Assembly: GCF_964204865.1 (NCBI RefSeq)
Contig: NW_027556749.1
Location: forward strand, 124,001-187,270
Length of the DNA: 63,270 nucleotides
DNA from: Styela clava
Taxonomy: Eukaryota
Reading direction: 5' to 3'
This document shows positions 1 to 47,881 of this stretch, piece by piece (position 1 is the first letter of the stretch; every line of letters starts with the position of its first letter). The notes beneath the pieces were generated by a model, which was not told where the DNA came from, ran no database searches, and saw only the letters and a program-made list of their open reading frames with translations. The position numbers and the translations under genes were made by a program.

Positions 1-1541
1 TTAGAACTTAAATATAATGTACTGTTAGCAGATTTAACATTTATATAATTCATTAAGTGAACATAATTTATAGTATCTACTTTTAAACCATCGACAGCTA
101 CAGCTTTAAGCTCATGAATTGAGTCAGAATCCGTAATTTCTCTAATAGTTTTTAAAACATTTGCTTTACCAATTCATCCCTTATCTCATATTTTAGAATC
201 AAAAGTTTCAGCTACTAAACTTCCTCGGTTGTGTCGTTTATCGTTAGGATTGAAATTTATCTCTTGGTCTTGCTTTCAATTCAAAGCATAATTAATAGAA
301 GCAAAATTACCATCAGGTATAATTAAATGTTGTTGTTCATATTGATAAGTTTTTGATAGTGGAGATACTTTAGGTTGTAAAAATTTTTCAATTCATAATG
401 GTGTAATAATATTTATTATTGATGGATCTTTTTCTTTTTTATGTCCATATATTTCACAAGACAATAAAGCTACAGAACCTTCTACTTCTAATTGTAAAGA
501 ATTAACACCTTTAACTTCTGAAAAAAATAGAGGCTCATAATCTTCATCCTCTTTCATATTTTTAATATCATTATCTATATCTTCTAGTGTAGGTGCTCTT
601 TTAGTTTGTGGAATTTCGTCATAAATTGGATTGTTATTTATATCATACATAATTTCGCCACTATCATTTGTTTTTAATTCTAATTTAGCACTAGTTGAAA
701 TAACATTTGGTTTAAAAAAAGTTTCACCAGGTTGACCAAATTGAATAGATTGTATAATATTCTTTCCTACAGTACGTAAACTTTCATTTACACTTTTAAA
801 AGTAACATCATGTCACATATAATCGTTTGTTTTAGGATTTGTAAAAACTTCAATGCTTTGAATATAGAATAAATCATTACCATTAATTTCTGGACATAAT
901 CACAAAAGTGTCATATTATCTTTTTTTATGGTATGAGAATCTGCTCTTCAAATAAAACTTTCTATATTTTCTGTATCTTTTTGAGTATCATCAAATCGAG
1001 CTCTTATTGTACTTTGTAATACTTGACGAACATAACCATCATCATCATGTGTAAAAGTACTAGAATAATTAATTGGAGGCAACGGTTTACCAACAACATA
1101 ATAACCTTCTTTGAATATTTTTTTTCCTTTACAATTTTTTATTTTTGCTTCTATTATTTTATATGAATCATATTGTTTTTTTTGTTCATCATATGTTAAT
1201 CTAAGTTCATCAAAAGTGTCTAATGTATCATAATTTTCAGGTTTAACAGGTTCTTTAGGAGATATATTTTTTAAAATATCAACATTTATAATAGTTGACG
1301 CATCATCTTCTACTGGATTGATAGGGTCTTCTCAACCTAAAGGTTTAACTAATATAGTTTTTTTACCTGTAAAAATACGCTCTCTAATTAAAGAATTAAA
1401 CCTTAAATTATCATCAACATCTGTAGCACCAGTAGCAAAAACATAAGGAAAAAAATAAAGATCTCTATTTTTATCTATTTCAACTTTTAAATTATCAGTA
1501 TCAGCATCTCGGTATACAATTTTATTATTTAGATCCAGCAT
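1..1541 (-). CDS. 5' part of the 1807-aa structural protein (full copy at 42458..47881)
   Basis: ATG at 1541 with GGAGG upstream; the frame is interrupted only by TGA and runs off the window edge. Confidence 0.8.
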
Positions 1542-3015
1542 CTGTCTTGTTTCCTCCTAACCCGTCATTTGATGTTCTCATTTGAGCATGTGATTTTGGA
1601 TTTGAATCGCGTGAATTAAAGTTACTCACTTGATTAAATTTTTTCAATTTGCCGTTTTGAGCATCATTCATAATTTCATTTTTTCCTTTCTCTTTTTCAA
1701 AGTCTAAGAATTGTTTTCTATTTTCGTCAGCATCTTTGTCAACTAATTTTTTCATTTCAACACTTGATGCTCGGCCAATTTCTTGAACGTTACTAATAGT
1801 TGTTATTCTATCTTGGAGTCCATTATTTAATTTAGCAATTTCAGCATTGATATATTCGATTGTATTTTTATTATTTCCATCTCTAATAGCGAAAGAAAAA
1901 TTTACATCACCAAAACCAGCACAATAGAACATTTTTTTCAAGAATCTATTAATCAGTTGATTAAACATCATTCTTTTAGAAATAATAGTTTTAATTTCGG
2001 CTGCAGAAACATTTTTAATATCTTCAGCTACGTTTGCTTCTAACTTACTATTCAAACTAATTCCAATTAAAGAATACAATAAGTGAAATTTTTCGAGCAT
2101 AGTTTTTTGGAGACTTTCTCAGTTGATGTTTGGGTGAATAGCTTGAATAGCTTGATCTTCGGAAGGAAGTTCACTAACCAAAACAGCTCGTGGAAGAGCC
2201 ATGTTATTTTTAGTTCTCTTGTCTCAATCTTCTAATGTGTCGGGGTCTAAGTTTCCAACGTACATGATAGTACGGTTATTAAGACGTTCTTTTTCAATTC
2301 AATCATAGAAATTAACGATGTCTTTAATAACGTTAGTACATTTTAATCAGTCGGGTCTAGGTGTTTGAGATGTGTGAAAAAAAGTTGTGAAATGTTCGAA
2401 CGGTATAATAGGAATTTTTCTACCTTTAATTTCTTTGTAAAAGGGGTTTCTGTCATTTTGAGGTTTGAAGTAGTAGTTAGGAATCATAGCACTTAATTCA
2501 CCTAGAGCTATCTCTTTACTATTATAGATATATGTTCTTTTGATTCGACCGTCATGTGTTCATGTTTCTCTAATAATAATAGGAATAACTGTATGTGTTT
2601 CTTTTTCGGCAAATGTTGAAATACTTACAATTTCTTCAAAACTCTTTTGTTGTCATATAATAAATTTTGGACGATTTAAATATACTCTAAATCCTTGATC
2701 GTCTTCAATAGAGTTTTCTATTTTATCAAAACCTAAAATCGCCTCACCATATAAAGATGTTTGGAAAATTAATTTAGATAAGAATTTGTCTCATTGAGCA
2801 TTAACTTTAAATGTATTTCAAAACTTTAGTAATTTTTCGTTGTCAGTATCAAATACGTAATGTCTATTATATATAGCATGTGTTAAGTGCTCAGCTATAA
2901 CTATTGGAAAATCACAAAATTTGTTTAAGTGATTAGTAGTTCTTTCACCATTTTTATCGTGTAACATGTTTCAATACTTAGAAACTTTATTAATATCTAG
3001 TTCTCAACTTTCCAT
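1525..3015 (-). CDS. Portal protein (496 aa, SPP1/A118-like)
   Basis: Open frame in code 4; typical portal size; segment 'QTSLYGEAILGFD'; lies in the structural operon. Confidence 0.7.
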
Positions 3016-3026: not shown

Positions 3027-3191
3027 TTATTCCTTTTTTGTTTTTTTACAGTCACATGAAATCTTTTTACAGATGTCATTTTTTTGAGTTTTTGTAGCAT
3101 ATTTATTAATAATATAAATTGCCACTTCGTCTATTTGTGATTTCGCAAAACTCATTACGAAACTAATTATCATTTTTAATGTTTTGTTCAT
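3027..3191 (-). CDS. Small hypothetical protein (54 aa)
   Basis: AAGGAG RBS before the ATG; fills the gap upstream of the portal gene. Confidence 0.6.
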   Translation of the reverse strand: MNKTLKMIISFVMSFAKSQIDEVAIYIINKYATKTQKNDICKKISCDCKKTKKE

Positions 3192-3540
3192 TGTTATTTT
3201 CTCCTTTGTTATTTTTGTTAATAACTTCCATAATTTTTTCTAGCTTGCCATTAATTCTTTTATCGATTCATTTTTTTAAATCTTCACTTTGTTTTTCATT
3301 CGCCTTTTCAACAGCCAAATCTTTACTTATATATTTCCTGTCATACATGTAAGCCAGAGTAACACATATTATTACAGTGAGTGCTATAAGCGCAGGAATA
3401 GAAACAATTAAAGCTGAATAAATTGTTTTATTATTACTTTCACTATTAGCAAAGTGGATAAATTGCGACAAGCCAAAACCTCCTACGGTTGCGCTTATCA
3501 TTTTTCAATATATTTTATCTCAATTCATAAATTTTATCAT
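3163..3540 (-). CDS. Holin-like membrane protein (~125 aa)
   Basis: Hydrophobic segments (ISATVGGFGLSQFIHF; IYSALIVSIPALIALTVIICVTLAYMY) followed by a charged C-terminus. Start codon uncertain. Confidence 0.5.
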
Positions 3541-3550
3541 TTCTTTTCAT

Positions 3551-6500
3551 CTAATGTCCGCTCTCTCTTCTAACTGATAAGTTAAATTTTGTTGGGAAGA
3601 CCAAATTATAATTACCATTAGCGTTAAATGTTCATTTTATATCGTTTAAAGCAACATTATTTCTCATATGGTAGTAAACGTAAAATGGATGACGATAAAC
3701 GTCGTTATTTGTTAATCATCATATATCTCCTCAATATAATAAGTCGCCAGTTGCTTTTGTTCATTTAATATTCCCTTTAATATTAACACCTGTTTTTGTT
3801 GCGAAATAGTGGTTGTAAAGATTTGCGTTCAATTGTCATGGACTCGCTGATTTTAACGTTGAGTGAAAATATGTTTTTGTTGTTGATGAGGTTGCGTTGT
3901 AATTGTCAGTGGTTACTAAATATTGAAAAGTTTTGTTTGTTGTGTCGCCAGTTTGTTTTGGTACTAAAAATGAATGTCATCTAACATTAGACGTATTAAG
4001 AGGCGGTTCGATATGAATATCAAAAGAATACAATCCATCTTTAAATTCTTTAGAATTACCAGTATTTAAGGTAACAAAAAACGAGTTACTAAAGTATTTT
4101 AATTGGGATCCTACTCTGTCAATGATTGGAAAACTTGTTTTTTTTCCAACTCCAGCGAAGTAAGTATTAGCTTCAATGTTGTTTGATGAATCCATTTTTG
4201 TAATTGTTGAACCAGTACCTATAACGTCTACTCATGGGTGGGGAGTGTGTAACATTTCAAGACGACTACGTGCTGTTTCGAATATTTCGGTACTCCCTAG
4301 ATCTTTAAATTGAGAATCTGTTATATTGTCATTACCAATATTTTCGATTAATGTTTGACCTTCCACTTTTGCTTCATATTGTGTAATTAAATGTCTGAAT
4401 TGTGCTTCTGTAAGACCATGTGTTTCAGAATATGCTTTAGGTGAGTTTTCACCAAATATTGAATTATAATCATCTGTTCCTTTAGTTCATTGAAAGTCAA
4501 CATTTGCTAAAACAGTTTCAATTTCTGATACACTAATAGGTTTATAATAACCATAAGAAGCATATAATTGACGTCTAGAATCAACATGAGTTATTCGTTC
4601 TAATATAGTTTTTGTGTCTTTATAATTTAATCCAGAAGTATATGTTTCAACTTTTTCGAATGGATAATACTTATATATTTTTAAATGTGAATTATCACGA
4701 ATATAATATGAGTTATTTATCGAATTAATTCGTGATGAGTAAGAGACAGGTGCTTTTAATATGTCAATCAATTTATCTTTTTGTGAACCTGTTGGTCTGT
4801 CAGTTCATCTCAAACCTTCAGCATTATTATCCTCATCGTAAGGTTCCATTTCTGGATCAACAATTTTTGTTTCTAGAGGTGCCAATCGGTTCTCTAATAA
4901 TGTATCTACTTGATGCTTTGTATAATGAGCTCCAATTAGAGCGAAGTAATTTTTCAAATAATCATAACCATCAATCCCAAAAAATTTTCCTTTTTGATTA
5001 GTGAAAACAGGTATTGAAGGAAAGTTTGATCTTGATGGATCTAGATAAGTGAAACGATTTTCTCATGATTGAGCAATTTCGTCTTGTGGGTCGGGATTTG
5101 AAATAACGTGATTTTGATAATCTTCAACGAATGAGTACACAGAATTAACATACTTTATGCTAAGATTAGCACCATCAGTATTAAAAGGTTCTTCAACAAA
5201 TTGACCATGAGATCCAATTAAATCAGAACTTCCGTCTTTGCTAAATTTTATAACAGCATAGTTTCTTAGTAAATTAATACAGTACAAACTAGGGTCAACA
5301 ATGTTAGCAATAATATATAATTCGTCATCTTGAACAAACAAGTCATAAACTTTGTATGTATCAAACTTAGTCATGTCAAGATCTGGTACTTCAGCTCTTA
5401 TGAAGTCAATTTGGTCGTCTCTCAACTGTTCATTTCAACCATGAAAAGATTCAATTGACGCGTTATTAACAGCTTTCACGCTTAGAGATTTGTCAGCTAA
5501 TAAGTCATAAAATTCATCTTCTGTTAAATGATTCAATAATGAATATTTTTCAGGAGTACTTGCTATGTTTAGTACGTTAGTTGCCCGAGTTGTGTCAACG
5601 TCTCTAAATTCTTTATAAATTTTTCCTAAATCAGATCTTTTTACATGAATAATATGACTTAATACACTAGTAGTTCCATCTTTTCTTATGTAATTACTTA
5701 ATGTATAGTTAGAACCACATAGATTATTAATTCAAGTCAATAAAGCAAAATGTTTTTGATAATCTGTTAAATCATTTCAATCAGTAGGTCCTCTGTAATA
5801 TTGTCAAATATCACGAATTACACAACTTTCTTCTTTGAAATTACAAATTTGGTAAATATCAACTTTGTCATTTATATCAAGAGAAAGAGGTTGCGAAATT
5901 ATATTACTTCCATATCCTTCTTGAACAAGACTATAATATTCAGCTTCTGTATTTAAAACAGTAACTAAAGTTTGAAGCTTCTCAGTAGTTGGAACAGTTG
6001 TTCAAGGAATAGTGTCTCTGTTTAATATTAAATCTTCTGTTCTGAGTATTCCATTAAATTTTGCGTCGATTTGAGGTTTGTTATATGTATCTGCTATTTT
6101 AGCATATAATTTGTGGTTAATTTCATCTGGTAAATTAGTAAGGGCTTTAAATTCTCTAAGAAGATTGAAAAATTCAGTTTGAGATAGACTGTTATAAGCA
6201 GAATAAAATTTAGGAGCACTAGCTCATACATTTGGACTACTAGTACTTTTATAATATCGTCCACTATCAATCAATTTTTGAATATCCCCAGTTCTTCAAT
6301 AAATAGGTTGAACATCATTATCATAACTTGTTCCTAAAATGTCATTTATTCTATAAATTCTTTTTAGTACAGTAGATAATTCATCTAAAACATCATGTTT
6401 AATACCATCTTTAGTAAAAGGTACTCGTTTATCTATATAATCATCATAAGCTATTATATAAGCTGTTTTGTGATTATTTTGACTATGATTACCATATCAA

Positions 6501-9500
6501 TGATCTGGTTCACTTAAAACCGCTAATAATTTTTCACGTTGAGATGCTGTAGGTACTTCTTCTCATTTCAATCCTGTAGGATTTGTATTAACATCATAAG
6601 GTAATAATTCAATATTAGTTACCTCAGTTTCTAATTCTGATAAACGATTATTTAACTGAGCGTCTATTTGTTGACGAGTATATATAGTATCTTTTGTAGC
6701 AAAAAAATTTTTAAGATACTTAAATCCATTAATACCAAACATTTTTCCTTTTAAATTTGTAAATACGGGCATTGTTGGAAAATTTGAAGCTTCTGGTACA
6801 TTATAATTAAAACGATTATTTCAAGTACTTGTATCATAGTTATCATCTTGATCTGGGTTTGAAATAACATGATTGTAACCATCTTCCAAAAAAGAATAAG
6901 TTGAGTTAACATAATTTAGACTTAAATTAGCATTGTTTTCATTGAAAGGTGCTTCAATTGTTGTAACATAAGTATTTCCTGTAACAGCTCGAATATCACC
7001 AACAGTAAATTTTAAAGGAGCAGTATTACGTAATAAATTTAAAGCTATAATACCTGCTTGTGTCGCATATTTATAAGAAACAATATAAAGGCTATCGTTA
7101 TAATCAAATAAGTCATAAATTTTATATTCATTTAATTTGTTTTCGTCATAGAAGGAAACTTCTCCACGAATAAGATCAATCTGTTCATTTGTAAATGGAG
7201 CATTTCAATCTTCAAATGACTCGATTGTAGTATGTGATTTTATATCTGTTTTTAAAGCAAAAAACTTTTTTAAATAACTATACGCTTTAACACCAAAAAT
7301 CTTCCCCTTTCTGTTTGTAAATACTGGTAGTGTAGGATAGTTTGAATATTCTGGTGTTATATATTTTAATCTAGTTTCTCAATCGCCAAATACTGATCCA
7401 CCTGGTATTGGGGTAGAAATAGCCTGATTATCGTGGTCTTCAATTCAACTGTAAATTGAGTTTATATATTTTAAGTTTAAGTTTGCCAGCTCAGTATCAT
7501 AAGGACCCATAATTGCTTTTACGTGATCTCCTTGAATAGCTATTAACTCTGCAGTTTTATTAAATATTCTAACAGCTTGGTTTCTTAACAAATTAATAGC
7601 AAATATATTTTCATTATTTAAAAGACGAGCACAAACGAAAACCTGATCACCAAAAGTAAATAAATCTAATACTTTGTAATCATCAAATTTGGCTCAATCA
7701 AAAGCATGAATATCTTCTTTAATAATATCAATTTGTTCGTCTGTCAATTGTGTTTCTCAATCAATAAAAGAATCCATTGACACTTTAGTTAAGTTTTCAA
7801 TTTTCCCTCTAAGTAAGTTATAAAAATCTTCTTGTTGTAAATGATTTTTTTCGCTATAAAGTTTTGGTGTTTTAACAATACCCTCTTCTTCGGCTACATC
7901 ACTATCATTATCTGTTTCAAAATGTTTGAAAAGCAAAGCTAGATCTGAACGTTTTATATGTACGATGTGACTTAACTCTTCAACTTCGCCATTTGGTTTT
8001 GTGTAATTACTTAATACATAAGTTGAACTACATATATCATTAATTCAAGCTAATAAAGTTGCTCGTTTTTGATACTCAGTCAAATCGTCTCAATCACCAG
8101 GTCCTTTGTAGAGACTTCATGCGTCTTTAATAGCATAAGTTTTTTCGCCAAAGTTAACGATTTTATAGATATTTATTTTGTCGCCAACATTTAAACTCAA
8201 AGGTTGTGTTGCGTAGTCACCTCCATACCCTTCTTCTTCTAAAGCATAATAAGTTTCAGGAATTTTAAGAGTTGATAATAAGGCTGTTTTTTGAGCTTCA
8301 CTTGGTGTTTTTTCTCAACCTAATGTTAGTTCTGACAATAAAGGATTTGTAGTTCTAAAAATAGAATCAATTTTTGTATCAATTTGAGGTCTAGTATATG
8401 TGTCTTTTTTTGTAGCATAAACGGTTTCGCCTGTTTCGATTTGGTGTAATTTAGCAAAAGAATCATTTAAAAAACCTAGAGCATTTACACCATATATAGT
8501 ACCATCTTCAGTAGTGAAAATAGGAAATGTTGGTAAATGACCTTCTAAGAATGTAAATCTTTTATTATAACTTTCAACAATATCTTCAGGTGTTGAGTGA
8601 GAAATTGGATGCGTTTTAACATATTTAATTCAAGATAAAATAGAACTAATGTATTGTAAATTTAAATTTGCGCCTCTTGTATTATAAGGACTTGGTAAAG
8701 TATCGTCATATGGAATAATACGTACTTTATTACCATTTCTTCTAATTTCAAAAGGTGATAAATTTTTTAATAATGGAGCAATAATTCAGTCTACATTATC
8801 TGGTGTTTTACTAACAAAAATATATACTTCACCATCATAAAAAATTTTATCAAAAAGTTTATAGTCACTATATTTAGTAGAATCATAATTTTTAACATTT
8901 CTAGCAATATCATCAAGTTGAGAGTCGGTTAGTTGTTGCTTCCATCCTGCAAAAGAATCTAATGCAACATCAACACTACTAGATTTTACCATATTATCAA
9001 CACGTGTGATAATTGTGTTTTTAACAAAATGATTATAAAACTGCTCTTTTGTATAACCATATTCGTCAGATCATTTTTGTGGTGTGCTGAAATTAGACTC
9101 AAATGAATAAACTGGTGGTTGTTGTGAATTTATAAAATATTCATAAAGTTTTCCTAAATCGCTTCTTCTAATAGGATTAATATGATCTAATTTTGTAACA
9201 CTACCTCCAATATGTTCAAAGTCACTTCTTTTATAACTAGATCCACATCTTCTATTTACAAATTTTAAAGCTTCATCGTGTTTTTGATCTTCAGTTAAGT
9301 CATCTCAATCTGAAGGAAATTCAACAGTATCTTTTTTTCATAAACTTCAAATATCTTGAATAAAAGTTTGTGGTATACCAAAGTTATTAAATTTATAAAG
9401 ATAAACTTTTTCTTCTGTACGGAGCGTTAAAGGATTATGAGCTCAATCACTTGATCATTTTCCAACGTTTAATCCATAAAAGGTTTCGGGGACTTTAAAA

Positions 9501-12007
9501 ACGTCAGCTAAAACTGCTCGTTGGTCGTCTAATGGTACTGATGTTCAAGGTAAAGTAGTTTCGTTTAAAAGTAAATCATCTAATCGTAATAAACCTTCAA
9601 GTTTACTATCAATTTCTGCTTTATTATATGTATCTCTTTTATAAGCAAACGTTATATTATTATGTAAAATAGAATGTATAGTGTTAAGCCCTGAATCTGA
9701 ATATAACAATTGTTTAACATCACCATTAACTTGTTTCAAATACATTTTACCATCTTTTTCAAAATAATAAAGTGAATCCAAAAATGTTGATGTTCTGTCG
9801 TCTGATGCTAAACTTTCAATTAAAGGATGATGTAAAACTGTGCTATGATTATCAGCACCTTTTATTGTTGGATCTATTAATGCTATTCCAGTGTCAGGAG
9901 CACCTGTTTCAAAACCAACAATTGTATGACCCGCTGTATAAAAAGGAACAAATCCATGTTCTGTATCTTCGCCATTATAAACACTTGTAAGTAAGTCAAT
10001 GAAAAAATTTTCGCCCGAAGTATCAACAGTTGGCGCGTGTTTTTTAACGTACTCAAGAGCTAAAGCAGTTTCTTTAACTGTCAAAATACCTTTAGTTCCA
10101 TTTAGTTCGTCGGGATGTAATGTACTTGTATGTCTTCAAACTTGACGTTTATATTTGTTTATAAGATAAGTATAAGTACTATCTTTAGCAAATGTAATAT
10201 AAATTTCACCACTATAATAAACTAAATCATTTACTTTTAAGTTACTTAATGAATTAACATCAGTATCATCATAAATTACAGAAATTAGTTTATCTAATTC
10301 AATCAACTCAGCAACTTGACTGTGTGATACATGATTTTCAATTTTAAAAACGTCAGTCTGTGATGGACTTATTTCATCTTTTTTTACAAAAATACTTGAT
10401 AAGTACTTAGTAGCATTAATACCTATAATAGTGTTACCTTTTCCATTAATAAATACTGGTAACATTGGTGTATTACTATCAAGAAATGAAAATCTAGAAT
10501 TATAATCTAATTGTGTTCCTTGATTAGTTGGGTCTGAAATTGGGTGATCATATATATCTTTAATTCATGTTAAAATAGAATTAGTATAATGTAAATTTAA
10601 ATTAGCGTTATTTACGTTGTAAGGGCTAGGTATACTAGAATTATAATCAAGTAATTGACCATTAAAATTAGCTCCTTGTTTTACAATCGTAATAACTGGT
10701 TTATTTCTATATAGTGGAACAACTGTCAATTGTGATGTCGATACATTTGTAACAACATAAGTATCACTACCATAAATAAATTGGTCAAATACTTTATATA
10801 TATCAAATTTAGTTAAGTCGAATGTATCAGTTGATGTTTGAAGATGTTCAATTTGTTCATCTGTATATTGAGCTTCTCAGTCACCAAAAGATTCTATATA
10901 ACTTTGTTGAGACGAAATTTCTGGTATTTCGTGAGTAGGATGTTCTAGATTTTCATCTAATAGATTAGTACTTTTTAAATACTCAGTTATTAATCTATTC
11001 ATGTCAGCTAATCCAACTTTCTCATTTCAAGCACGAACAAATTCTATGTAAGTGATTGGTCGTAATTCGAAGTTAGACAACCCTTCTATAATTTCACTAT
11101 CTTGGTCGTTTACATTAAAAGGTGTCGTACAATTTTGCCCTATGGGATCTATTAATGTAGCTTTTTTAACTAATCCTGCAGCCACTAATAAATTAACAAC
11201 TTCTTTTGGTAAATAACCAATAGGTCATGAGTTGGCTACATTTTCAGAAAGTCCATTAACAGATTCAGAAACTTGGCGCCCTTCAAAATTGATTCCGTGT
11301 TGAATATAATAAGCAGATAACAATACTAAAGCTTTACGTAAAAACTTAACTTTGTCTTTAGTAGTATGACTTAATAAAGTAACATAAGATGTAATTTTAC
11401 CTTCTGTTACAGCGTCAATACGTTCATAAGCATTATAAATAATACGTTCGTATTGTTCAGTTTTATATTTTCTATTAATTAATGCTTCAACATCTCTAGC
11501 ATATATATAAGGTGCCGACTCGGCTCTTGAATCGTTTAAACTTTTCTTATATAAAATAATATTACTACTAGAAATCAAACTATCAATTATTAATTTAATA
11601 TCACTATTTTCTTTATTATACTCAATATTAAAATTTGCTATTGACTTTAATTCGTTATCAATATCACGTCGTGTAACTATAGTACTAAAATCATTATTGT
11701 TAGCTCTCTTTATAAAAGGATAAACATTTTCATAATTAATAACCCTTTCATAATAAGTTTTCCTTAAATTTAATCATTGTAAAAAATCATTAAAATTTGT
11801 AGGTGCTATAAGGTCATCAGTAAAAAGTGCTATAGAAGTGTTATAATTTAAAGTATATGTATTAATAGTTGATATTTCATTAGTTACTTGTATTAATAAT
11901 TCAGTTAAAGTTTTGTTTTCACTGTTATTTATAATACTTGACTTGAAAGTTTCAATATTGTCAAAAATAGAGTTATATTTAGTTTGAAATTCTAGTAATG
12001 TTGTCAT
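3551..12007 (-). CDS. Giant repeat-module fibre/adhesin (2818 aa) with N-terminal head-tail adaptor-like domain
   Basis: Nine track ORFs share one frame separated only by TGA, and the gaps I read contain no TAA/TAG until 3551. Two module types repeat internally. Confidence 0.8.
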
Positions 12008-15008: not shown

Positions 15009-15051
15009 TACCTTTTCACGTTCTCGATCGTTGAGATAAAAAAAAAAGTAC

Positions 15052-28365: not shown

Positions 28366-28370
28366 TTTTT

Positions 28371-34005: not shown

Positions 34006-34352
34006 TGAATAATAGTTTACAAAATACTTTAGATACAGCTTGCGCAAATTTAGTTAAGATTAAACAAAAAATTGACGAATTGCGTAAAACTGAAACTGAA
34101 TATAAAGATATTTTAGTTGCTGTTATGAAATCTCACGACTTGAATAAATATGTGTCAAATAACCACTCATTTAATGTGTACAAAGAACGTAAAACAAAGA
34201 GATTGAACACAACAATTTTTAAAAAATTAGTTCAAGAAGAACTTAAATATACAAATGAACAAATGGCAGAATTAATTGAAAAATCTTCTGGTGAAACAAT
34301 TACAAAGTCATTTATTAAAATTAGTGCTGTAAAGAATGATACATCAAAATAA
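34005..34352 (+). CDS. Hypothetical protein (115 aa)
   Basis: TAATG coupling; helical N-terminus. Confidence 0.7.
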   Translation: MNNSLQNTLDTACANLVKIKQKIDELRKTETEYKDILVAVMKSHDLNKYVSNNHSFNVYKERKTKRLNTTIFKKLVQEELKYTNEQMAELIEKSSGETITKSFIKISAVKNDTSK

Positions 34353-35016
34353 TTATAAGAAATATATAGTACCTCGTTTTAATGTTGAACAATTTGAATT
34401 TAACATGGCGAATTTGAAATTTGAAGAAAAAACACATAAATATCTATTAGTAGATAATCCATATCTTCAATTATCAAGTGTAAGTCAAGAATTGTCACAT
34501 TGTAATAGATACTACGCCAGACGAGGTCAATTAGCTTCTAAAAGGATTCTTCAAATTGCGTCCCTAACAGGTAAAATTATTCACGGCGCATGTGAAAAAA
34601 CAATATGAAATGAAGAAGTAGATTTGAGATCATCCGATTTTGATACAATACGAAATCGAATCAAACCTTGAATTGAAGAGCTAAAAAAACATTTCGAAAA
34701 AAATGATTATTTAAAGATCATAATGACAGAAGTCCCGTTGGTTTCTCGAAAAGAAAAACTGGCGGGCACTGCCGACTTGATATTATGAAACGACAAAGAT
34801 AAGTGTGTCGAAATCTGAGACTGAAAAAGTGGAAAATATTCGTCTTATGAAAGCACTAAATGAAAATATTCGGCGCAACTTTGAGGTTACATAATGTTAC
34901 TAAAAGAAAACTGAAAACCAAAAAACGAATACCAAAAAATTAGAACTTTTGTTGTTCACATGAAGGGAAATTTATTAATAAAGGAACAATTAAACTATGA
35001 AGAATTATGACAATAA
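34336..35016 (+). CDS. PD-(D/E)XK exonuclease (226 aa)
   Basis: FEEKTHKY, SVS, GKIIH, TE, LAGTADL, IWDWKSG and AQLWGY. Confidence 0.85.
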
Positions 35017-35473
35017 ATATATTATAGCAATTGACACCGCACTCAAAAGTGGATATTATGGGAGATTGGGAAGGTTAGGTTTTATTAAAGGACACGGAAC
35101 ATTTAGTGACGTTTTAAGAAAAATAAAATATCACATTGACATTATAAAACATCAAATTTCACCAAACAATCCTCTCATATTAATCACTTATGAAGATGTT
35201 GGAAGAAATCACAAGACAACAGCAAAATTACACGAGTATAAGGGAAAACTTTTACAAACAATAGAAAACACAGTTATTCATTATAAATATGAACGTTTTA
35301 ATGAAGTTAACGTATTTAACTCAATTTTGGGGAAAAAACAAAAATGATTAAGAGTTGATAAAAAAGCATTTTCTAAAGATTTGTATAATAAATATAACGA
35401 AGACAAAACAGATAATGATGACCTAGCCGACGCCTTCGTTTTATATAAATATTATGATGAGTATCTTGAGTAA
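34997..35473 (+). CDS. RuvC-like Holliday junction resolvase (158 aa)
   Basis: IIAIDT, YED and NDDLADA acidic motifs. Confidence 0.75.
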
Positions 35474-37821: not shown

Positions 37822-39379
37822 TAAAACAAAAAAAGATTTATGTACTGAATTATTACACATTTGTATTGAACGTAATAAAAGAAAATGACCTGACATTATA
37901 GATCATTTAAAAAATTGTTTTCCAAAAACGCCTTTTAAAGCTAATGAAATTATAATTCAATTTTTTATGGATTATAAATTAAAAAGATTTTATAAAGAAG
38001 TTGTAAGTAAGTATTTTTTATATAAATATGATATTGTTAAAATTGGAGTGTTTACATATGTGTTTGATAAGAAAAAAAACAAATGGCAAAATTTTGAAAT
38101 TAACGAGTTCATGGATTTATTAGACAAAGAAGAAATTCCCGAAGATTCAGCTCAAAATATTTATGATCACATCATTAAAAAATTACCTGATGGTTCAGAA
38201 GGTTCGGTTAAGTTAAGAAACATTTTGATAGAGTTTGCTGATAACTGTCACAAAGACGGCGGTTATTTTTTCAGCAATAACAAAGCTTATAAAATTGAAA
38301 AAGATGGGGATGGTGTCGTTTTGAAAGAACATGATATACCGCTTTGGGATACTAAAAAGAAGCAACCAATCCCTTATTTTCAAAATTTACCTTTTAACAA
38401 AAGTATTTATAATAGATTAATTGAAAAAGGGGAAGCTAGTATAGATAAAGACGTTTTGAATATGTTTGGTGGTTTATTTGAAAATAATAGTGAAGGGCGT
38501 TTAAATATGATTGCTTTATTTAAGTGTACAGCTAAATTATTATTGAGATACTCATATTTAGGGTTAGTTTTTATTATTTATAATTCGGTAGGACGTAATG
38601 GAAAATCTAAATACTTGGAACTTCTAGACAACTTATCGCCAGAAACATCAACTTCTAAGTCAGCAATTAATACTATTATGAAATATGAGTTTGATATTAT
38701 CACTAAAATTAGAAATAAAACTTTAATCATTCAAGATGAAAAACAAAAAATTACAAAAGAAGAAATTGTTTTTTTCAAAAAGACGACAAGTAATTTATAT
38801 ACTGACTTTTTAAAAGTTAAATTTGGTAAACCGTCGATGATGATTTATCCTCAAAACTTCGTAACATCAACTAACTATACAATGGATTTAGAAGAAGATA
38901 ACGATAGTATTAGAGCTAGATTTAAATTCATGCTGTTCCCCAAAAATTTCAAAGGCGCCGATTCAAAAGACGCTATGGATCCTGACAAACTAGATAGATT
39001 AATGAGATCAAAAAGTTTTTTAGAAGAAGTATTTACAACATCACTATACTATTTAATGGCGTACAAATGTAAAATTGAAAATACTAAAGCGATGGAAGAA
39101 TTGTATAATAAGAATATCAGCAGTCCAATTAAAGATTTCTTAGAATGATTGCTAGGTGATGGTAAAAGTAAATATTATAAACCTTCAGAACTACGCGATG
39201 AATATAGAATTTGAAAAACTGAAAGTGACATGTCTATTATAGATCGCCGACGTTTACCTCAAGTTTCGAAATTACTTAAAGTATTATATGACTCTTCTTT
39301 CTCTGAATACAGCGTTTATAAAGAAACTTCTTCAGGTGGTCAAGTGTGTTATAATATATCTAAAGTAATTAGAAGATAA
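37814..39379 (+). CDS. D5-like SF3 helicase (521 aa)
   Basis: Walker A GRNGKS, Walker B IIQDE, motif C STN and Arg finger IRARF. Confidence 0.82.
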
Positions 39380-40861
39380 TTAAGATCTAATAATACTTCC
39401 GTGTCTGATGTTAGACATACGCATTGATCTTTCTCTATTTCTAATACCTTTAAGATAACCAATACGATTACCTTTAATTTCTCGCATTAGACCATAACAC
39501 ATTGCGTCGAAAGGATCGTTAAATCCAACACTATTATCTTCAACAAGTTTGTTAACATCATTAGCATCATGTTTATATTTCATGCTGTTTAAACATTCTA
39601 AAAGAACTGGACATTTATTTTTCAATACATAAAATTTAGCTACAGACATAACTTCTTTAATCGATGTAATTCTAATCTCACGTTTAAAACTATTTGAGTT
39701 TTTACTTTTTACTGGAACAAAATATATGTTACTTCGAGCTTTAGCATACATTCGTAAATTATGGACTAAGTTAGGTTCGTTATCGTCGGTATATACTGTG
39801 GCTGCACGATTCATATCAAAGCCAAATTTTCTTAAAGAATCATGAATAAAAGTGAAAATAGTTGTCTGTAAAGAGGTCGAATTATATGCGCGGTTTTTGT
39901 GTATTATTTTTTTTTCACATAACGTTATAACACTAGTTCGATCTCTAGAAACAATACCCATTCAAACATAAGTCATGTTTATCGTTCGACCAAAATCGAC
40001 ACCAATTCGGAAAGAGCCACCTTCAAATGTTTTCTCAACTTGGAGCAAATTATCAATATGGATAATTTTTTCTGTTGGGAATATAATGTCTGAAGAAACA
40101 GCAGGTTTACCATAAGCAATAACTTCGGCGTTGTGGGATCCAGATTCGGCGTCTTTTAAAATTTCCTCGATTTGTTGTTTAGAAATATAACCTTCATCTT
40201 TAGTTTTGAGAATATTAGTTCAATGGTAAATCGTGTGATCTTCTTCACTAATATAAAACTCTTCACCTTTAGTCATCATTTTAGCTCGATTTCAAGGCAA
40301 TACTTTTTCAAGTGTTCTAAAGAATCAACATCCGGGGAAGAAGGGGTTTGATGTGAAGAAACGAATACTTTCTTTTTGACCGGCAATAGCACCTTTAATG
40401 GCTGATAAGTCGGATTCGTCTAATTCACCAGCTTCGTCGTAAATTGAAATAACATAATCACAATAACCTCGAGGGAGTCCTACGTGCGCAATTTTACGTT
40501 GTGAAGAGTCTTTCAATCCTAAAGCTCTAACTGTGTAGTTATTTCCTCGAATTGTTGAGTTTGAATAATTGATATTAAGTCCATTTTTTTTATATCAAGG
40601 TGGAATTAAATTAATATACTCTTCAAAAATGTATTTAATATTTTTTAAAGTTTTACGAATTAAATAAATACGAAATGATTTTTCGGGCATAAAGTCGGCA
40701 CACATCATCGCAAAAACTAATGCGTTTGCGGTTTTACCTGTATAACGACCCCCACCAAACATAAATTTATAAATATTTAATTCTTCACCTCTTGACATCT
40801 TTAACATAATGTCGTTTAAATATGAAAATGTTGGTGATAATCCAAATTTATTTTTATTCAT
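39380..40861 (-). CDS. terL: Terminase large subunit (493 aa, PBSX-like)
   Basis: GGGRYTGKT, IYDEAGE, TSNP, IGVDFG and NDPFDAMCYG. Confidence 0.92.
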
Positions 40862-41254
40862 CTATACTTTTTTTCCTGATTTATTTTCTACATTAATAGT
40901 ATATTTTGGAGCTTCGTCAGAAGTTATAGTTATTTTATTACCTATATCGTAACGAGAAGCTGTTGATAAAGCTCGTCTCATAACAATACTTTTTAATTGT
41001 TCTGAAAATTCACGTCAATTACTATCACGTACACAAAATCCTAATTCAAATTTTCATTTCTTATATTTTTCAATAAGTGATGGAATTGATCCAGGATCTG
41101 CTAATAGAACTAGAGTGTCGAGTTTTTGTTTCTTTAAAAAATCTGTGAAACAAGTACAAGGCCCAACCTCTTTATGTGTTATCTTTTCAATTTTACGCCC
41201 ATTTTTTTTAATATTTTTCTTGGGTCTAATTTTCCTTGATTGTATTTTGCTCAT
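40862..41254 (-). CDS. Putative terminase small subunit (130 aa)
   Basis: AAGGAG RBS; directly upstream of terL; fitting size and KITITSD tail. Confidence 0.55.
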
Positions 41255-42453
41255 GCTTGACTCCTTATTTGTGTTTTTTTATATTTAACTCTCTTTCTTA
41301 TTTCTCTCTTTAAGTTTTTCTTCCCATATTGTTTTCTAGCATTTTTAACTTTTAGTGATATATCTTTTTTAGCATTTATTTTAGCAGTCTTCAACTGTTT
41401 TATATTAGTTTTTCTTAATTCAATATCTCTATAATATGATCTTAAATTTTGACGTTGTCATGTTTTTAGAACAGATTTTGTAGGTCTGATAACATCCATC
41501 CTTGTATCGCTAACGTGAAAGTCACTACCTAAAACATCACTGAAAACAAAGCCAGTATAATCGACGTTTTTTTTAGCTTCTGCTTTTAAAACACCAATCA
41601 TTTCTCTTCTTCTTTTTCGTCATGACTTATTTATTTGTGCTATAGCTCATTTTTCAACTTTCTCTCTTTTTTTTTCTGTTCATTTTTTTCCTTTAGCAAC
41701 AGTTGTAAGTAAAGCTTGACCTAATTCAGGATTTTTAAAAAAGATTCCAGTTTTTCACATAGCGGTTCCAATTCCACTACCACTTCCTTTACCTTTTATT
41801 TTACTATAAGTAGATCCAAAAGCAATTTTTGAGGGATTTAGACTTTCTTCATAAATTCTTTCTGGTATTTTAACTCAAATATATCATCTATTGTGAGCTC
41901 TAATTCATAATTGTTGGGTAGTATGTTCATATCTAAGTCCTTGAATTCAAGAAGAAGCTACTCCTTTTAAATTTTCATAAGTTTCTAAGTTACCAACATT
42001 ATATTTGACAGCTACTTGCTGTTTATTAATAACATCACCTTCTCGCGTTATATCTGTTTGTTTATTAAGATAATCTTCTTTGTCAAATTGGATTGATTTA
42101 ATTTCATCATATAACATTTGTAATGCTTTGTCATAACCTCCTTTAGTAGCTATACCTAAAATATTTAGATGTTCTATTTTTTCTCTAAAGGCTTTTGCGT
42201 AAGCACTTGACATGTGAGTTTCAATTCTATCAACAGCTTTATCGATTTGGATTCTTATTAATTGACGTAATGCTTTCCGATCTCAAGGATTTTTTATATA
42301 ATAATAATATATTATAGATCTTGCCTTGTTGATTGTAGCTGTAATACCAGGTTGAAAAGCTCTAATGTCTGGTACCCCAGCATATCTATCTCTTTTTATT
42401 ACTTGATAAAATGAATTTAAACGTTTATTATAATTTGTAAAGTTATTATTCAT
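41179..42453 (-). CDS. Basic protein with a central KTSC-like domain (~424 aa), possible minor head protein
   Basis: SSWIQGLRYEHTTQQLWI...YIWVKIPERIYEE...SGIG; Lys/Arg-rich C-terminus. Confidence 0.6.
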
Positions 42454-42457: not shown

Positions 42458-45400
42458 TTATTTTACAGGATTCAATCTTTTCAAAACTAAAGTACTATTT
42501 TCACTTAAATCATAACCAAACGTATTTACTAAGTCATAATCGCTAATTGTTGTTGATACTATATTATCTTCAGCGTCAACAATTGTATTATAAACACTTG
42601 ATCCTGTTGTTATAAGTGAAGTAGCTTTTACATTCAATTTTGAATTTGTTGGATTATAAGTAGTATATACTGTTAAAGGTCTAGACAATATATTAATAAT
42701 ATGTCTTTTAAAAACATTAAAGAAAGGATGCGCTGATATATATTTAACAACAGGTTTATAAATGTCTTTAAATAATTCATATCATAAAGATTCTGTATTA
42801 TAACTTATATTATTTTTATATTTTTCTAAAATTGTTAAAGGTTCACTATTTACGATATTTAAAGTATTTTCAGATGCTCAAAAATCAGCTGTAGTCATAG
42901 TCATAGCATCTATATAAAATTGTTTTAAACGTTTTAAATCTTCTAAAAGTATTGAAGGTGTTGTATATTCAAGAGAACTAAGATAAAATACAGGTTCATT
43001 CATCTTTGAATCATCTTCGAAAAAAGCACCAGTACCAAATGAATAATAACCACTACTTTGTTGAGATGTACTTTTTTTCTTATAAGATCGGAGTGAGTTT
43101 ATTGAAAGAACATAATAATTATCTGAAATTATTTGGTCATAGCAAAAAGAAAATCAAGGTTCTTTTTTATGTGGATTTATATTATATAATCAAGTATTTT
43201 CACCGTTAGGTTCTGCGTCTTTCAAAATATGATTATTTATAAGTTTCTTATCTACAGCTTTATTATAACCATTTATAACAGTTTGAGCTCTATATCTTGA
43301 CATTGAAATAGAATAATCACCTTTATATTTTCCTACATCTTCTAAAAGAACAATTGGTTGTATATTAGAACTTAAAAGACTTTCTCATTTCGGTAAACTA
43401 GGATATTGTTCAAACACAGAAATTGTAGGTTTAAATTTTATTAAGTTAGGATCTATATATTGAACTATTTCTTCTTTTAATTGTAGATTAAATCTATAAG
43501 CATTAATTTGATTTTTAGATCGACCATTAATAGATGCATTAGATGAAGCTGTGTTTCAACCCGAACCTTTAAGATATCTTAATCTAGCACTTCTAGCATT
43601 ATATCAAAAAGGAAATCCATTATTTTTATGAGTTATGGAATGATATTTACCAGTTAAATTTAAAAATCTATAATTTCTACCATCCTCATATAAATCAACT
43701 AAGTCTTTAAACTGAATTCCTTTATTAGCAGAATATAAATGATTTAAAGTTAAAGGTTGTAATGTGTTATATTCAGCTTGAAAATAACTTTTTCAGTTTG
43801 TATAATCTTCTGTTGTGAAAGGATAATCTGTCATATTACCCGATGGTTTTATAGAATTAGTAATAGGTGAATAACCAACATATTGATGTTCAGTATTTAT
43901 TAAGTACAAATCACTTACTGTTTTTTCTAATTCACTTTTAGAATAATAATATGTTCTTTTTTTATAGAATAATGAATACAAAGAACTATATACTGTTGAT
44001 GATTTAGTTGATATAATAGAATCTTTTTTGTCTCTTATATATATTTCTAAATATTGCTTTAATTGTTCCATCGTTTTTGTTTCATCTATTAAACGTTGGT
44101 TTGCTACTGTTTTCATAGTTTCGATGTTAGTGGTTGATTCTTTATACAAATGACCACTCATATAAGTTTCTAAATCGCTAGAAACATCTGTTAAACTTGA
44201 GAGACTTATAGCTGTAGTATAAATCTTATTATATGCTGTTTCACTATTTGTAAAATTTTCATCTCCTATAATATCACTATAAATGTCTACAACCGCTTCA
44301 TCTTCTCTACTACTATTATATTCACTCTCTATTATATTTACTGTCTTTACTTTTAAATCATCATAAAAACTATTTAAATTAATTATTTTAGCATCCATGT
44401 AATTATCAACTTCTTTTTGTAAAGAACCTATTAATTTTTCTTTTGCTCTTGTAAAAATTTCATCTATAAAAATATATTTATATTTATCATAATCAATACT
44501 TGTTAAAGTATTAAAATTATTAGGTTTGACAGGATAAGCATCACCTACAGGTAGCCCATAATATTCTACAGCATCATTAATAATTTGACCTAGTTTTTTA
44601 TAATCGGTAACTATAATAGGTGATGTGTTTAAAGAATTTATAATTGTATCTTTATATCAAGTGCTCAAATCTAATAATCTTTGATCTAAGTCCCTTATAT
44701 TAGTTAATTTTTGACTATTTGATAAATTAGTATTATCATTAACTCTAACTTTAAGATCTATAATATCTTGAGGTTTAGTAAGACCATCATAGTTAAAGTC
44801 ATCATTAGAACTGTCGACAGTAAATAAATTTTTTAAAGCAGTTATTTTTAGCAAATTTTTATATTTTTCAATATTATATAATAAATTCTGTTCAATATCA
44901 GTAGGAAAATTTTTTAACTTAATATCTTTTTCTTTATTCTCTAAATAGTGTGGAAATGTATATTGTTGTTCTATCTCTCTAATAATATTGTCAGATTCTA
45001 TAGTATAAAGATTTAGTAATTTGGTATCAACCAACAATATTAACTTATCTTTTAATTCTTTAGTAATATCTTTTTTAACAATATCTATATTAATATTGAC
45101 ATCTTGAACATCTTCAAGTGTAACTGTAAATACAGTATAAGTATTTATTGAATTTTTTTTTTCTAATAATTGATTTATTGTTTTAAAAGTTTCAATTTCT
45201 TGGATATCAGTTATATAAGTATAATTAATATCATCTAATATAGAATTATATAAAAATTCTTTAGTTTCTAAAGGAACTATTTTTTCTAATTTATCAACTG
45301 TAATTGATTGAGCCGTATCATCTATAACAGATTTGTTTTTATAAGATTCCAAATTTGAATAATTATCAGTACTATAATTAAACAATACCATGTTAGAAAC

Positions 45401-47881
45401 TTCTCTCATATTTCCACTTCACTCAGATTGTGTTTGGGTTTCATAATAGTATATAATATTTCTATCATCATCCATAAAACTAACTTTAACATTTCTATTA
45501 CCTATTGTTTTTAATAATATACAATCAATAACAAATTCTGAATCTTTGTCTTTAGGATAAGATATTGTAGTTTGATTATAACCTAATTTAATTTTTTTTT
45601 CACCTTTAATTACTTTTTCTAAATTGATTATTTCATTTCTTTCGTCACCTTCTTCTTTAGAATCATAAATCATAACTTTATCTGTAAGTTGTCAATGATA
45701 AACATCTCTAAATTGTGTTGTGTCTAGTATTTGTGAAAAAGGATTTTCGTCTGTTGTAAACATTATAAGAGGTATACCAGTAATGGCTCTTGGAAGATTT
45801 GAAAGCATACCATTCATTACTGAACGACTAATCATATAAGGAAATGAAAAAGTTAGTCCATTACCCATTACAGATCTAAAAGTAGCTCATTCAGCAGGTA
45901 TAAGACTTGTAATTTGTGGAGCAATTTGTTGAGCTAAAGCACCACCTACTAATTTAACTATACCTCCTACTGGGAGAAATAACATAAAAAATGAAGCAGA
46001 AGAAACAACAATTTTTAATCAAGCTGTATAATAACCTCTATAATCTTCTCATTTAACTCTATAAGGTTCTAAAGTAACTATTTTTTTATTAATGAGATTC
46101 ATATAATTTAAACAGTCTGCTTTTGTAGCATTAGTAAATATAGGCAAATTACTTGAATTGTCATCTCTACTTTCATCAATTATAGATCCTGTTGAATCAT
46201 ATATTATTTTACCGTCAACATCAACCGATTTGTCAAAAAATAAATTTGTCGCCGAAGATAATGTAGCAAATTTATGTCTTTCTCAGTTTTCTTCTTTAAT
46301 ATCATAACCACCATGAAATCTAATATTTGAAACATCATTATTAGAACTTAAATATAATGTACTGTTAGCAGATTTAACATTTATATAATTCATTAAGTGA
46401 ACATAATTTATAGTATCTACTTTTAAACCATCGACAGCTACAGCTTTAAGCTCATGAATTGAGTCAGAATCCGTAATTTCTCTAATAGTTTTTAAAACAT
46501 TTGCTTTACCAATTCATCCCTTATCTCATATTTTAGAATCAAAAGTTTCAGCTACTAAACTTCCTCGGTTGTGTCGTTTATCGTTAGGATTGAAATTTAT
46601 CTCTTGGTCTTGCTTTCAATTCAAAGCATAATTAATAGAAGCAAAATTACCATCAGGTATAATTAAATGTTGTTGTTCATATTGATAAGTTTTTGATAGT
46701 GGAGATACTTTAGGTTGTAAAAATTTTTCAATTCATAATGGTGTAATAATATTTATTATTGATGGATCTTTTTCTTTTTTATGTCCATATATTTCACAAG
46801 ACAATAAAGCTACAGAACCTTCTACTTCTAATTGTAAAGAATTAACACCTTTAACTTCTGAAAAAAATAGAGGCTCATAATCTTCATCCTCTTTCATATT
46901 TTTAATATCATTATCTATATCTTCTAGTGTAGGTGCTCTTTTAGTTTGTGGAATTTCGTCATAAATTGGATTGTTATTTATATCATACATAATTTCGCCA
47001 CTATCATTTGTTTTTAATTCTAATTTAGCACTAGTTGAAATAACATTTGGTTTAAAAAAAGTTTCACCAGGTTGACCAAATTGAATAGATTGTATAATAT
47101 TCTTTCCTACAGTACGTAAACTTTCATTTACACTTTTAAAAGTAACATCATGTCACATATAATCGTTTGTTTTAGGATTTGTAAAAACTTCAATGCTTTG
47201 AATATAGAATAAATCATTACCATTAATTTCTGGACATAATCACAAAAGTGTCATATTATCTTTTTTTATGGTATGAGAATCTGCTCTTCAAATAAAACTT
47301 TCTATATTTTCTGTATCTTTTTGAGTATCATCAAATCGAGCTCTTATTGTACTTTGTAATACTTGACGAACATAACCATCATCATCATGTGTAAAAGTAC
47401 TAGAATAATTAATTGGAGGCAACGGTTTACCAACAACATAATAACCTTCTTTGAATATTTTTTTTCCTTTACAATTTTTTATTTTTGCTTCTATTATTTT
47501 ATATGAATCATATTGTTTTTTTTGTTCATCATATGTTAATCTAAGTTCATCAAAAGTGTCTAATGTATCATAATTTTCAGGTTTAACAGGTTCTTTAGGA
47601 GATATATTTTTTAAAATATCAACATTTATAATAGTTGACGCATCATCTTCTACTGGATTGATAGGGTCTTCTCAACCTAAAGGTTTAACTAATATAGTTT
47701 TTTTACCTGTAAAAATACGCTCTCTAATTAAAGAATTAAACCTTAAATTATCATCAACATCTGTAGCACCAGTAGCAAAAACATAAGGAAAAAAATAAAG
47801 ATCTCTATTTTTATCTATTTCAACTTTTAAATTATCAGTATCAGCATCTCGGTATACAATTTTATTATTTAGATCCAGCAT
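42458..47881 (-). CDS. Large structural (tail/ejection?) protein, 1807 aa
   Basis: Six track ORFs share one frame; the gaps I read have only TGA. Spans the repeat junction. Confidence 0.78.

Follow-up and report, generated by a model that had tools for sequence, protein, structure and literature searches.

The stretch of 63,270 nucleotides analysed here (the window; G000:C347:124001-187270, contig NW_027556749.1 of the Styela clava assembly GCF_964204865.1) carries a bacteriophage genome, here called phage A, which reads TGA as tryptophan. Its genes, its ends and its relatives together suggest that phage A is a virulent, short-tailed double-stranded DNA phage of a wall-less bacterium of the family 'Ca. 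Oceanoplasmataceae', which uses the same genetic code (code 4) and lives in or on the sequenced eukaryote. We consider this reading as a whole to be fairly likely.

The window holds about 1.4 copies of a 46,340-nt unit: positions 46341-63270 duplicate positions 1-17004 except for differences of 4 nt and 78 nt. A preliminary description of this DNA, made from its letters, had given the correct unit length, as comparison of the window with itself places the start of the second copy at 46341; its starting point at base 1 is no genome end. The assembly (376.8 Mb, 380 contigs) contains chromosome-size contigs with eukaryote-type small-subunit rRNA. The gene for the terminase large subunit (TerL) of phage A has 39 matches in it, none of them on those contigs. 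Nine matches are 99% identical (four on C347, four on C90 and one on C72), two are 97% identical and belong to a variant of phage A (C318 and C216), and 28 are 32–34% identical and belong to a second phage, phage B, of ~45.9 kb.

The genetic code is apparent from coding density. Under table 11, open reading frames (ORFs) of at least 100 amino acids (aa) cover a fraction of 0.27 of positions 1-46,340, which rises to 0.885 when TGA is read through, compared with 0.30 for read-through of TAG and 0.66 for read-through of TAA; the fragmented ORFs do merge, as had been proposed. In phage B the cover is 0.35 with table 11 and 0.89 with TGA read through. The 44 accepted genes of phage A contain 208 TGA, 11 TGG and 555 glycine codons, TGA making up 95% of the Trp codons, and in-frame TGA occurs in 42 of 45 genes. 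The repeats of the putative fibre protein described below carry TGG at 8942-8944 where other copies have TGA (10877-10879, 7757-7759, 7205-7207 and 5435-5437, minus strand); these codons are as first described, the positions given then being the lowest base on the minus strand. TGA was likewise confirmed in the stand-alone repeat copy (30072), in the DWK motif of the nuclease (34822) and in the FQIW motif of the methyltransferase (21267). The columns of TerL with TGA show W, F or Y in 3 of 5 positions, in homologues which may themselves be code-4 translations. TAA and TAG stay stops and in-frame TGA falls on Trp positions of homologues, as expected for code 4, and we regard this code as practically certain.

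The virion and packaging genes, read in this way, are the following.

39380..40861, minus strand: terminase large subunit, 493 aa (phrog_2, E 6e-25; hhalign 99.9% to TerL of the Spiroplasma phage NSRO-P1; tree)
40862..42453, minus strand: proteins of 130 aa (possible small terminase) and 424 aa (basic), from position only
42458..47881, minus strand: virion protein of 1,807 aa (hhalign 97.4% to NSRO-P1 and 98.4% to the G064 prophage, where it is portal-adjacent)
1525..3015, minus strand: portal protein, 496 aa (hhalign against the portal profile of NSRO-P1, 98.7%; the label is the depositors')
3163..3618, minus strand: membrane protein of 151 aa in the virion operon, holin-like candidate (hydrophobic window 2.77)
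3551..12007, minus strand: virion protein of 2,818 aa with five repeats of ~172 aa (74% identity with phage B across 2,271 aa)
14016..14624, minus strand: scaffold-like protein, 202 aa (Pfam Phage_scaffold, E 0.005, below cut-off; position)
59016..60332, minus strand: putative major capsid protein, 438 aa (position; 21% identical to its phage B counterpart)
30003..30656, plus strand: stand-alone fibre repeat, encoded among the early genes (profile E 2e-22; also in phage B and the variant)

A TerL homologue led to NSRO-P1, which belongs with NSRO-P2 and MSRO-P1 to the SpV3-like phage-like contigs of Spiroplasma poulsonii (OL689227 etc.) that use code 4 like phage A. Terminase, portal and large virion protein of both phages are homologous, and NSRO-P1 likewise has a scaffold, a capsid, a gene in the connector position, membrane proteins, a RecB-type nuclease and RuvC, and no tape measure. 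The two differ in block order and in size (19 kb in NSRO-P1 versus 46–48 kb), and NSRO-P1 is without annotated polymerase or tRNA. The 46.3-kb unit of phage A also lies outside the range of 16–22 kb given for the SpV3-like group in the accessible text of PMC13375369. The TerL tree suggested in the preliminary description places A and B as sisters (99) inside a clade (99) with six further proteins, apart from NSRO-P1; large-genome prophage rows were left out of it. The same terminase, portal and large-protein module, read with TGA as Trp, occurs in prophage-like loci of genomes from the host's bacterial order (for example G064, G265 and G021), which in contrast to phage A are integrated and small, with a TerL identity of ~26% at best and a single weak match to other genes of phage A in the fetched loci. 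A single-query TerL search found no match in INPHARED (tblastn, 50,697 phage records), in IMG/VR or in a word-indexed protein search, and HMMER over representatives gave 98 matches, the best ~26% identical. The virion module is of a known mollicute type, as the code is usual for such a host; what is new are the size, the likely fixed ends, the replisome, the tRNA block and the host family.

Several assignments within this module are unconfirmed, namely capsid, connector and small terminase as well as the sigma factor discussed below, and they count against the overall reading. The capsid had no family match in Pfam, PHROGs or NCBIfam; against the NSRO-P1 capsid hhalign gave a non-significant E of 0.015, the single-sequence model reached a predicted local distance difference test (pLDDT) score of 31, the phage B capsid matched only itself, and a capsid profile run over the host order recovered nothing beyond the prophage type that the alignment already contained. 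Homology of small terminase, scaffold and connector (E 0.004) to NSRO-P1 was not confirmed by hhalign.

The 2,818-aa protein is likely the receptor-binding fibre or spike. Its repeat was modelled with pLDDT 78.7 and a predicted template-modelling score of 0.79; Foldseek gave no match in PDB or BFVD at E<=1e-3, the best match being an uncharacterised protein of 72 aa from a phage (E 5e-3, 65 columns), and no relative of the repeat was found in IMG/VR. The preliminary description had called the phage tailed, which terminase and portal support indirectly; tail-tube and tape-measure families had no match among the 47 ORFs in Pfam and PHROGs. Because the module is SpV3-like and these families are missing, the tail is probably short. 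The accessible text of 10.1101/2021.12.09.471767 ties the NSRO contigs to earlier short-tailed particles, reporting no tails of its own.

In the first copy the capsid ORF is split (12676-13740 and 13752-13988, minus strand), as 4 nt present in the second copy are missing at 13839. A 78-nt tandem stands at the repeat boundary of the first copy (14853-15012). Four public runs from one study contain 99% of the sampled words; the three covering runs hold neither the split nor the tandem and carry the continuous capsid form, and we treat both as assembly or minor-variant features.

14933..17004 (second copy 61199-63270), no strand: likely long direct terminal repeat of ~2,072 nt (contig ends, depth)

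Contig C347 starts at the window-equivalent position 14933 and ends at 17004, where C72 ends too; 3 of the 10 A-type contig ends examined lie at one of these positions and the other seven are internal. For phage B, 7 of 11 contig starts are at one end and 2 at the opposite one, the three far ends that were fetched coincide, and the ~0.8-kb end repeat of phage B is 93–94% identical within a contig. Depth, taken from runs X1, X3 and X4, over 14952-16392 is 201–218 in X1 (flanks 86 and 72) and 162 in X3 (flanks 85–89). Because contig ends coincide and depth roughly doubles in two of the three runs, the genome is probably linear, of ~48.3 kb, with a direct terminal repeat of 2.07 kb. In X1, X3 and X4 a commoner form is present at 17108-17744, in which ~550 nt (a 127-aa gene) are replaced; the phage population is therefore polymorphic just inside the right end.

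Some observations do not favour fixed ends. In X4 the depth is 125 with flanks of 119 and 89, which is only 1.05–1.4-fold, the summed depth may include the variant, and the left end at 14933 rests on a single contig. NSRO-P1 has been reported as headful and circularly permuted (10.1101/2021.12.09.471767, accessible text), in contrast to the likely fixed ends of phage A.

A virulent phage with a terminal repeat is, in our judgement, likely. The preliminary description had called the phage apparently lytic, with no integrase or endolysin recognised: neither these nor a repressor had a family match among the 47 ORFs in Pfam and PHROGs, an absence that is soft because most ORFs match nothing. The absence of TerL from the chromosome-size contigs, and the lack of a match to TerL or the family-B DNA polymerase in the five genomes of the proposed host family (see below), also favour a virulent phage. 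The phage might instead be temperate or chronic, kept in a carrier state or as a linear or circular extrachromosomal form, with repeated contigs as artefacts of a circle and the ends as a break in coverage. Contig C90 is indeed an exact circular concatemer, and PMC13375369 (accessible text) characterises all mollicute phages described to date as temperate or chronic. Furthermore, P0004, which is a truncated TerL from the same subclade, and an alanyl-tRNA synthetase (AlaRS) of the proposed host family (P0166) share a longest-contig size of 306,066 nt, which speaks against virulence as a hint that relatives integrate. Yet integrase and partition families found no match, independent contigs share the same ends in both of two unrelated phages, depth doubles, and phage A has a full replisome and a tRNA block, so that we consider a temperate or chronic phage rather improbable.

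The two co-occurring phages share modules with phage A. Phage B (G000:C337, L021-L025, and ~20 other contigs; ~45.9 kb) reads TGA, has 8 tRNAs and carries a tmRNA-like gene (L024:4030-4318, minus strand; match to the full RF00023 model with E 5e-12 and 38 bits, where the gathering score is 47). Its core is distant from that of phage A (TerL 32%, portal 26%, family-B DNA polymerase (PolB) 34%), whereas the fibre is 74% identical over 2,271 aa, one early gene 83% and tRNA stretches 83–97%, a mosaicism which would suggest recombination in a common host. The variant (C318, L026-L030; C216) is 90–99% identical to phage A in the core, with 66% for the 424-aa and 56% for the 1,807-aa protein, and its accessory region is replaced. 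Of its 70 kb, 50 kb were examined, a span of more than one unit, and a single tRNA (Gly) is kept there; AlaRS is present, and the methyltransferase and peptidyl-tRNA hydrolase (PTH) of that region are absent. The truncated AlaRS of the variant and phage B (409 and 411 aa) are identical at 384 positions, and the window has none.

The host is almost surely a mollicute, as proposed from the outset, and would very probably belong to the same family as 'Ca. Spiroplasma holothuricola', because the ranks of AlaRS, PTH and tRNAs and a trait of isoleucine decoding point to the same five genomes. These are G001 ('Ca. S. holothuricola' MT37), G015, G026, G035 and G044, within a compared set of 61. 'Ca. 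S. holothuricola' has been placed in 'Ca. Oceanoplasmataceae', together with symbionts of jellyfish, corals and starfish, by a 2026 preprint (10.64898/2026.08.10.742674, accessible text), and we infer that the other four belong there as well.

Ranked by similarity to the phage AlaRS, G001, G035, G044 and G026 come first and G015 17th, and in the AlaRS tree both phage copies fall into a clade with these first four (Shimodaira-Hasegawa-like approximate likelihood-ratio test, SH-aLRT, 100). Named AlaRS matches are mostly Mycoplasmopsis, Spiroplasma and other mollicutes; members of one cluster are labelled 'Mollicutes bacterium', and its best GTDB match, with 11 of 64 parts scanned, is 'Ca. S. holothuricola' MT37. 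For P0166 nothing was found in GTDB. The PTH of the window ranks G026, G035, G001, G015 and G044 at 1, 2, 4, 5 and 9, and has motifs and a deletion in common with four family genomes (the alignment excludes G044). In G026, G035, G001 and G015 (L265-L268) the PTH frame continues into a second domain starting with a GGQW/FGDEGKGK motif, which is presumably adenylosuccinate synthetase-like. TilS is present in 56 of the 61 genomes and missing in exactly the five family genomes, all of which have a tRNA-Ile(UAU) that is also present in A and B (74–84% identical to the phage copies); this agrees with the tRNA-Ile(UAU) without TilS described for 'Ca. S. holothuricola' (PMC5861454, accessible text). 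Within the loci available, Trp(UCA) tRNA was seen in 3 of the 5. Of the 1,211 Ile codons in genes of phage A, 385 (32%) are ATA, versus 4–15% in five family loci of 15–20 kb, and tRNA-Ile(UAU) would therefore be useful to the phage. The host prediction proposed earlier found support in the tRNA block, for which G026 and G035 are best among 398 genomes, and none in CRISPR spacers.

A number of results weigh against this family. Identities are low (AlaRS 45–46%, PTH 32–37%, tRNAs mostly 75–92%), the branch leading to the phage AlaRS is long (1.45), its gene lies in the variant and B and not in the window, and AT-rich composition can bias ranks. The tRNA ranks 3–6 fall outside the family, with 2 candidates scored per genome, and thymidylate kinase (TMK) puts G035 and G026 first and G001, G015 and G044 only 26th, 41st and 55th of 57. 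Cas1 occurs in all five genomes, and 348 spacers from four of them matched no better than shuffled ones (best 5 mismatches), in a set where the 15 kb of G035 hold no array, the arrays of G015 and G044 reach the edge of the fetched stretch and the genomes are those of distant species. No bacterial rpoB over cut-off was found in the assembly, which does not contain the host, so that a direct link to the host is lacking, and no bacterial 16S either, with eukaryote-type matches only among the 37 of 1,145 candidates scored. According to the accessible texts of PMC4014445 and PMC10688831, respectively, tRNA-Ile(UAU) also occurs in Mycoplasma mobile and hemoplasmas, and in a Latilactobacillus prophage. 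The anticodon of M. mobile, hemoplasmas and 'Ca. S. holothuricola' is the same as in A and B, although the gene of phage A is phage-borne, unlike these cellular copies (PMC4014445, PMC5861454).

The same code-4 phage could accordingly have another mollicute host, such as Spiroplasma, another family of the order or an unsampled sister lineage, with its likeness to the five genomes due to AT bias or old transfer. The order of G001 we take to be Mycoplasmatales. The TerL profile is widespread in it (41 of 398 genomes, 38 with in-frame TGA), TerL had no match in the five family genomes, and the low identities, the long AlaRS branch, the mixed TMK ranks and the spacers fit such a host as well. The agreement of AlaRS, PTH and tRNA ranks with the tilS/tRNA-Ile(UAU) trait on five genomes makes it, in our view, an unlikely alternative to a host in 'Ca. 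Oceanoplasmataceae'. Relatives infecting walled hosts with the standard code, which the preliminary description had held to speak against a mollicute host, did not appear, as the TerL family lies in TGA-reading genomes of this order.

The notion of a recoded phage of a walled, standard-code host, with a suppressor tRNA serving late genes, is largely refuted and we give it very little weight. Such phages exist: the gut phages Agate, Jade and Sapphire also have TGA as Trp in a tailed-phage genome, and 65% of recoded phages have no detectable suppressor tRNA (10.1101/2021.08.26.457843, accessible text). According to the same text, their TGA clusters in the genes for structure and lysis, and a suppressor tRNA is often present, whereas in phage A it is genome-wide and host-matched, with similar density per 1,000 codons in virion (15.1), early (18.0) and replication genes (13.4) and 6 in two repeat genes. 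No Trp(UCA) tRNA was found among the 12 tRNAs of phage A, although a divergent one could escape detection, and family searches found no release factor or Trp-tRNA synthetase among the window ORFs. The captured genes and TerL relatives come from TGA-reading genomes, and the TGA pattern fits a phage matched to a code-4 host and not late-gene recoding.

Reading TGA as Gly (table 25), with a host among Gracilibacteria or Absconditabacteria, would suit the low GC content, and is contradicted by the alignments. In 16 gene pairs of A and B, aligned with TGA masked, 165 columns contain TGA, 71 of them in both phages; the rest face F (15), Y (13), S (9), L (8), W (2), G (1) and others, and only 1 of 324 Gly positions of phage A faces TGA in phage B. 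Against the variant, 160 columns comprise 124 TGA/TGA, 4 TGG/TGA and 3 Gly/TGA pairs, the last, like the single G column with phage B, speaking for Gly. In the AlaRS of phage B, TGA stands opposite W in 2 conserved motifs in all 4 PDB alignments shown and never opposite G. As TGA swaps with TGG and most often faces F/Y, and 555 ordinary Gly codons stand beside 11 TGG, TGA is best read as Trp, as first proposed, the predominance of Gly that was to speak against it being absent, and the table 25 reading is refuted by the alignments, with a negligible chance of being correct.

An endogenous eukaryotic or organelle-linked element, suggested by the eukaryote assembly in which the phage was found, is equally improbable, since those contig ends that were fetched consist of phage sequence, TerL is off the chromosome-size contigs, the sigma-70 promoters, CCA-ending tRNAs and captured genes are bacterial, and in ~6% of a Hi-C run labelled as the same species there were only 2 partial reads, of 90–95% identity. 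No RNA dataset holding the phage was listed.

The early, replication and regulatory features are given below.

14971..15080, plus strand: two left-end promoters close to the sigma-70 consensus (11/12 with TG, and 12/12; consensus match only)
15625..16314, minus strand: acidic protein of 229 aa inside the repeat, pI 4.45, 27% D+E (composition)
20709..21665, plus strand: type II DNA methyltransferase (PADLOC MTase_II, E 2e-61)
21625..22203, plus strand: PTH (PF01195, E 1e-29), closest to the proposed host family
24550..25834, plus strand: short NAD-ligase-like protein (PF03120, E 3e-6, below cut-off) and thymidylate kinase (PF02223, E 9e-28)
26766..27308, plus strand: sigma-70-like protein, 180 aa (NCBIfam sigma models, E 1e-3 to 8e-3, far below cut-off)
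27287..27348, plus strand, and 14705-14765, minus strand: repeated element of 54–62 nt preceding the tRNA block and the virion operon
27551..28656, plus strand: 12 tRNA genes (Ala, Val, Thr, Ile(UAU), Asp, Tyr, Pro, Ser(GCU), Asn, Lys, Arg, Gly)
31590..32189, plus strand: thymidine kinase (PF00265, E 2e-12)
34336..35473, plus strand: PD-(D/E)XK exonuclease and RuvC-like resolvase (PF12705, E 7e-9; phrog_298, phrog_827)
35473..37821, plus strand: family-B DNA polymerase, 782 aa (phrog_1252, E 8e-26)
37805..39379, plus strand: primase-helicase-like protein, 524 aa (phrog_7601, E 2e-8; phrog_864, E 4e-4)

Polymerase, primase-helicase and tRNAs bear out the phage-encoded replisome and tRNAs that had been proposed. 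For the sigma factor, named in the same place, the NCBIfam matches below cut-off are suggestive and PDB gave no match, so that it stays a conjecture. The best match of PolB to phage polymerases (tblastn) is 31% over 24% of its length, it has no relative in JGI metagenomes, and the exonuclease has no match in PDB. The ligase-like protein (24550-25209, 219 aa, KLDG motif and OB fold) is far shorter than NAD-dependent LigA and 63% identical in phage B. A promoter-like site (16612-16584) lies upstream of the acidic 229-aa gene, whose product is a candidate early DNA mimic or anti-defence protein.

The element of 54–62 nt is likely a late promoter, a role that is a deduction since the sigma call is weak. 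The variant has its own version of it at both sites; identity to phage A is 67% for its sigma-like gene and 70% for the gene directly preceding it, compared with 93–97% for the three genes before those. Non-coding hairpin runs surround the tRNA block (27350-27550, 28450-28582 and 28657-28770), 86–90% kept in the variant, their fold being seen without a shuffle control; Rfam had no family for the first two.

In the cycle that we propose, the 2,818-aa repeat protein would bind the host membrane and linear DNA with its ~2.07-kb terminal repeat would enter the cell, where the consensus sigma-70 promoters of the repeat would drive the early genes. Early acidic proteins and the methyltransferase may act against restriction or CRISPR systems. 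Concatemers would arise through PolB, primase-helicase, exonuclease and resolvase, fed by thymidine and thymidylate kinases, and the sigma-like protein might then turn on virion operon and tRNA block via one shared promoter. The 12 tRNAs, with the TilS-independent Ile(UAU), and PTH could support the host's minimal translation system, as AlaRS could in the variant and phage B, and tmRNA in phage B also. Finally, the terminase would cut at fixed ends, and small membrane proteins, three of which with membrane-like segments are present in phage A, would release progeny without endolysin.

T5 and SPO1 have long direct terminal repeats and tRNA clusters. Like phage A they have strong host-type promoters and small acidic genes in the terminal repeat, their own polymerase, nucleotide kinases, a tRNA block and a sigma-like late switch. 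Phage A is much smaller, uses code 4, and genes for a long tail or an endolysin were not found in it; the likeness is one of organisation, with no sequence relationship apparent for the genes of the window.

According to the accessible text of a 2024 review (PMC13375369), code-4 mollicute phages are few and small, those described being temperate or chronic. Genomes with an accession reach 24.4 kb in its table, about half the size of phage A. The review also mentions an SRO particle with an unsequenced genome of >30 kb, an Acholeplasma phage of 39 kb that lacks an accession, and a prophage-like region measuring 53.5 kb. The open-access literature yielded no account of phages of 'Ca. Oceanoplasmataceae'; subscription papers and supplements of the IMG/VR or VIRE type may hold relatives. 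It is conceivable, as a tentative proposal, that these are the first phages of the 0.4–0.6-Mb symbionts of this family: a virulent lineage with a genome about one tenth of the host's, a host-matched translation kit (TilS-independent tRNA-Ile(UAU), PTH, mini-AlaRS, tmRNA) exchanged among co-infecting phages, an attachment fold without match and an early free domain possibly blocking superinfection. If so, the lineage of phage A would be the kind of virus against which the 76 CRISPR spacers in the 425-kb genome of 'Ca. S. holothuricola' (PMC5861454, accessible text) defend. Attachment to and exit from a wall-less cell without endolysin would become testable, as would the need for phage tRNAs and translation-rescue genes in a tilS-less host. 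The 39 TerL matches also illustrate that eukaryote assemblies cleaned of bacteria can retain several whole unrecognised phage genomes, which annotation with table 11 would shred.

Among the remaining genes, a 300-aa protein (33103-34005) with N-rich and Q/P-rich terminal repeats and no family match is possibly a single-stranded DNA-binding protein. Small paralogues with an ending similar to LEYCI.N lie at 19188-19538, 29159-29458, 29483-29797, 29791-30003 and 30616-30915, two of which are fused in phage B, and phage B carries a long TAA/TTA microsatellite near C337:40,990-41,190.

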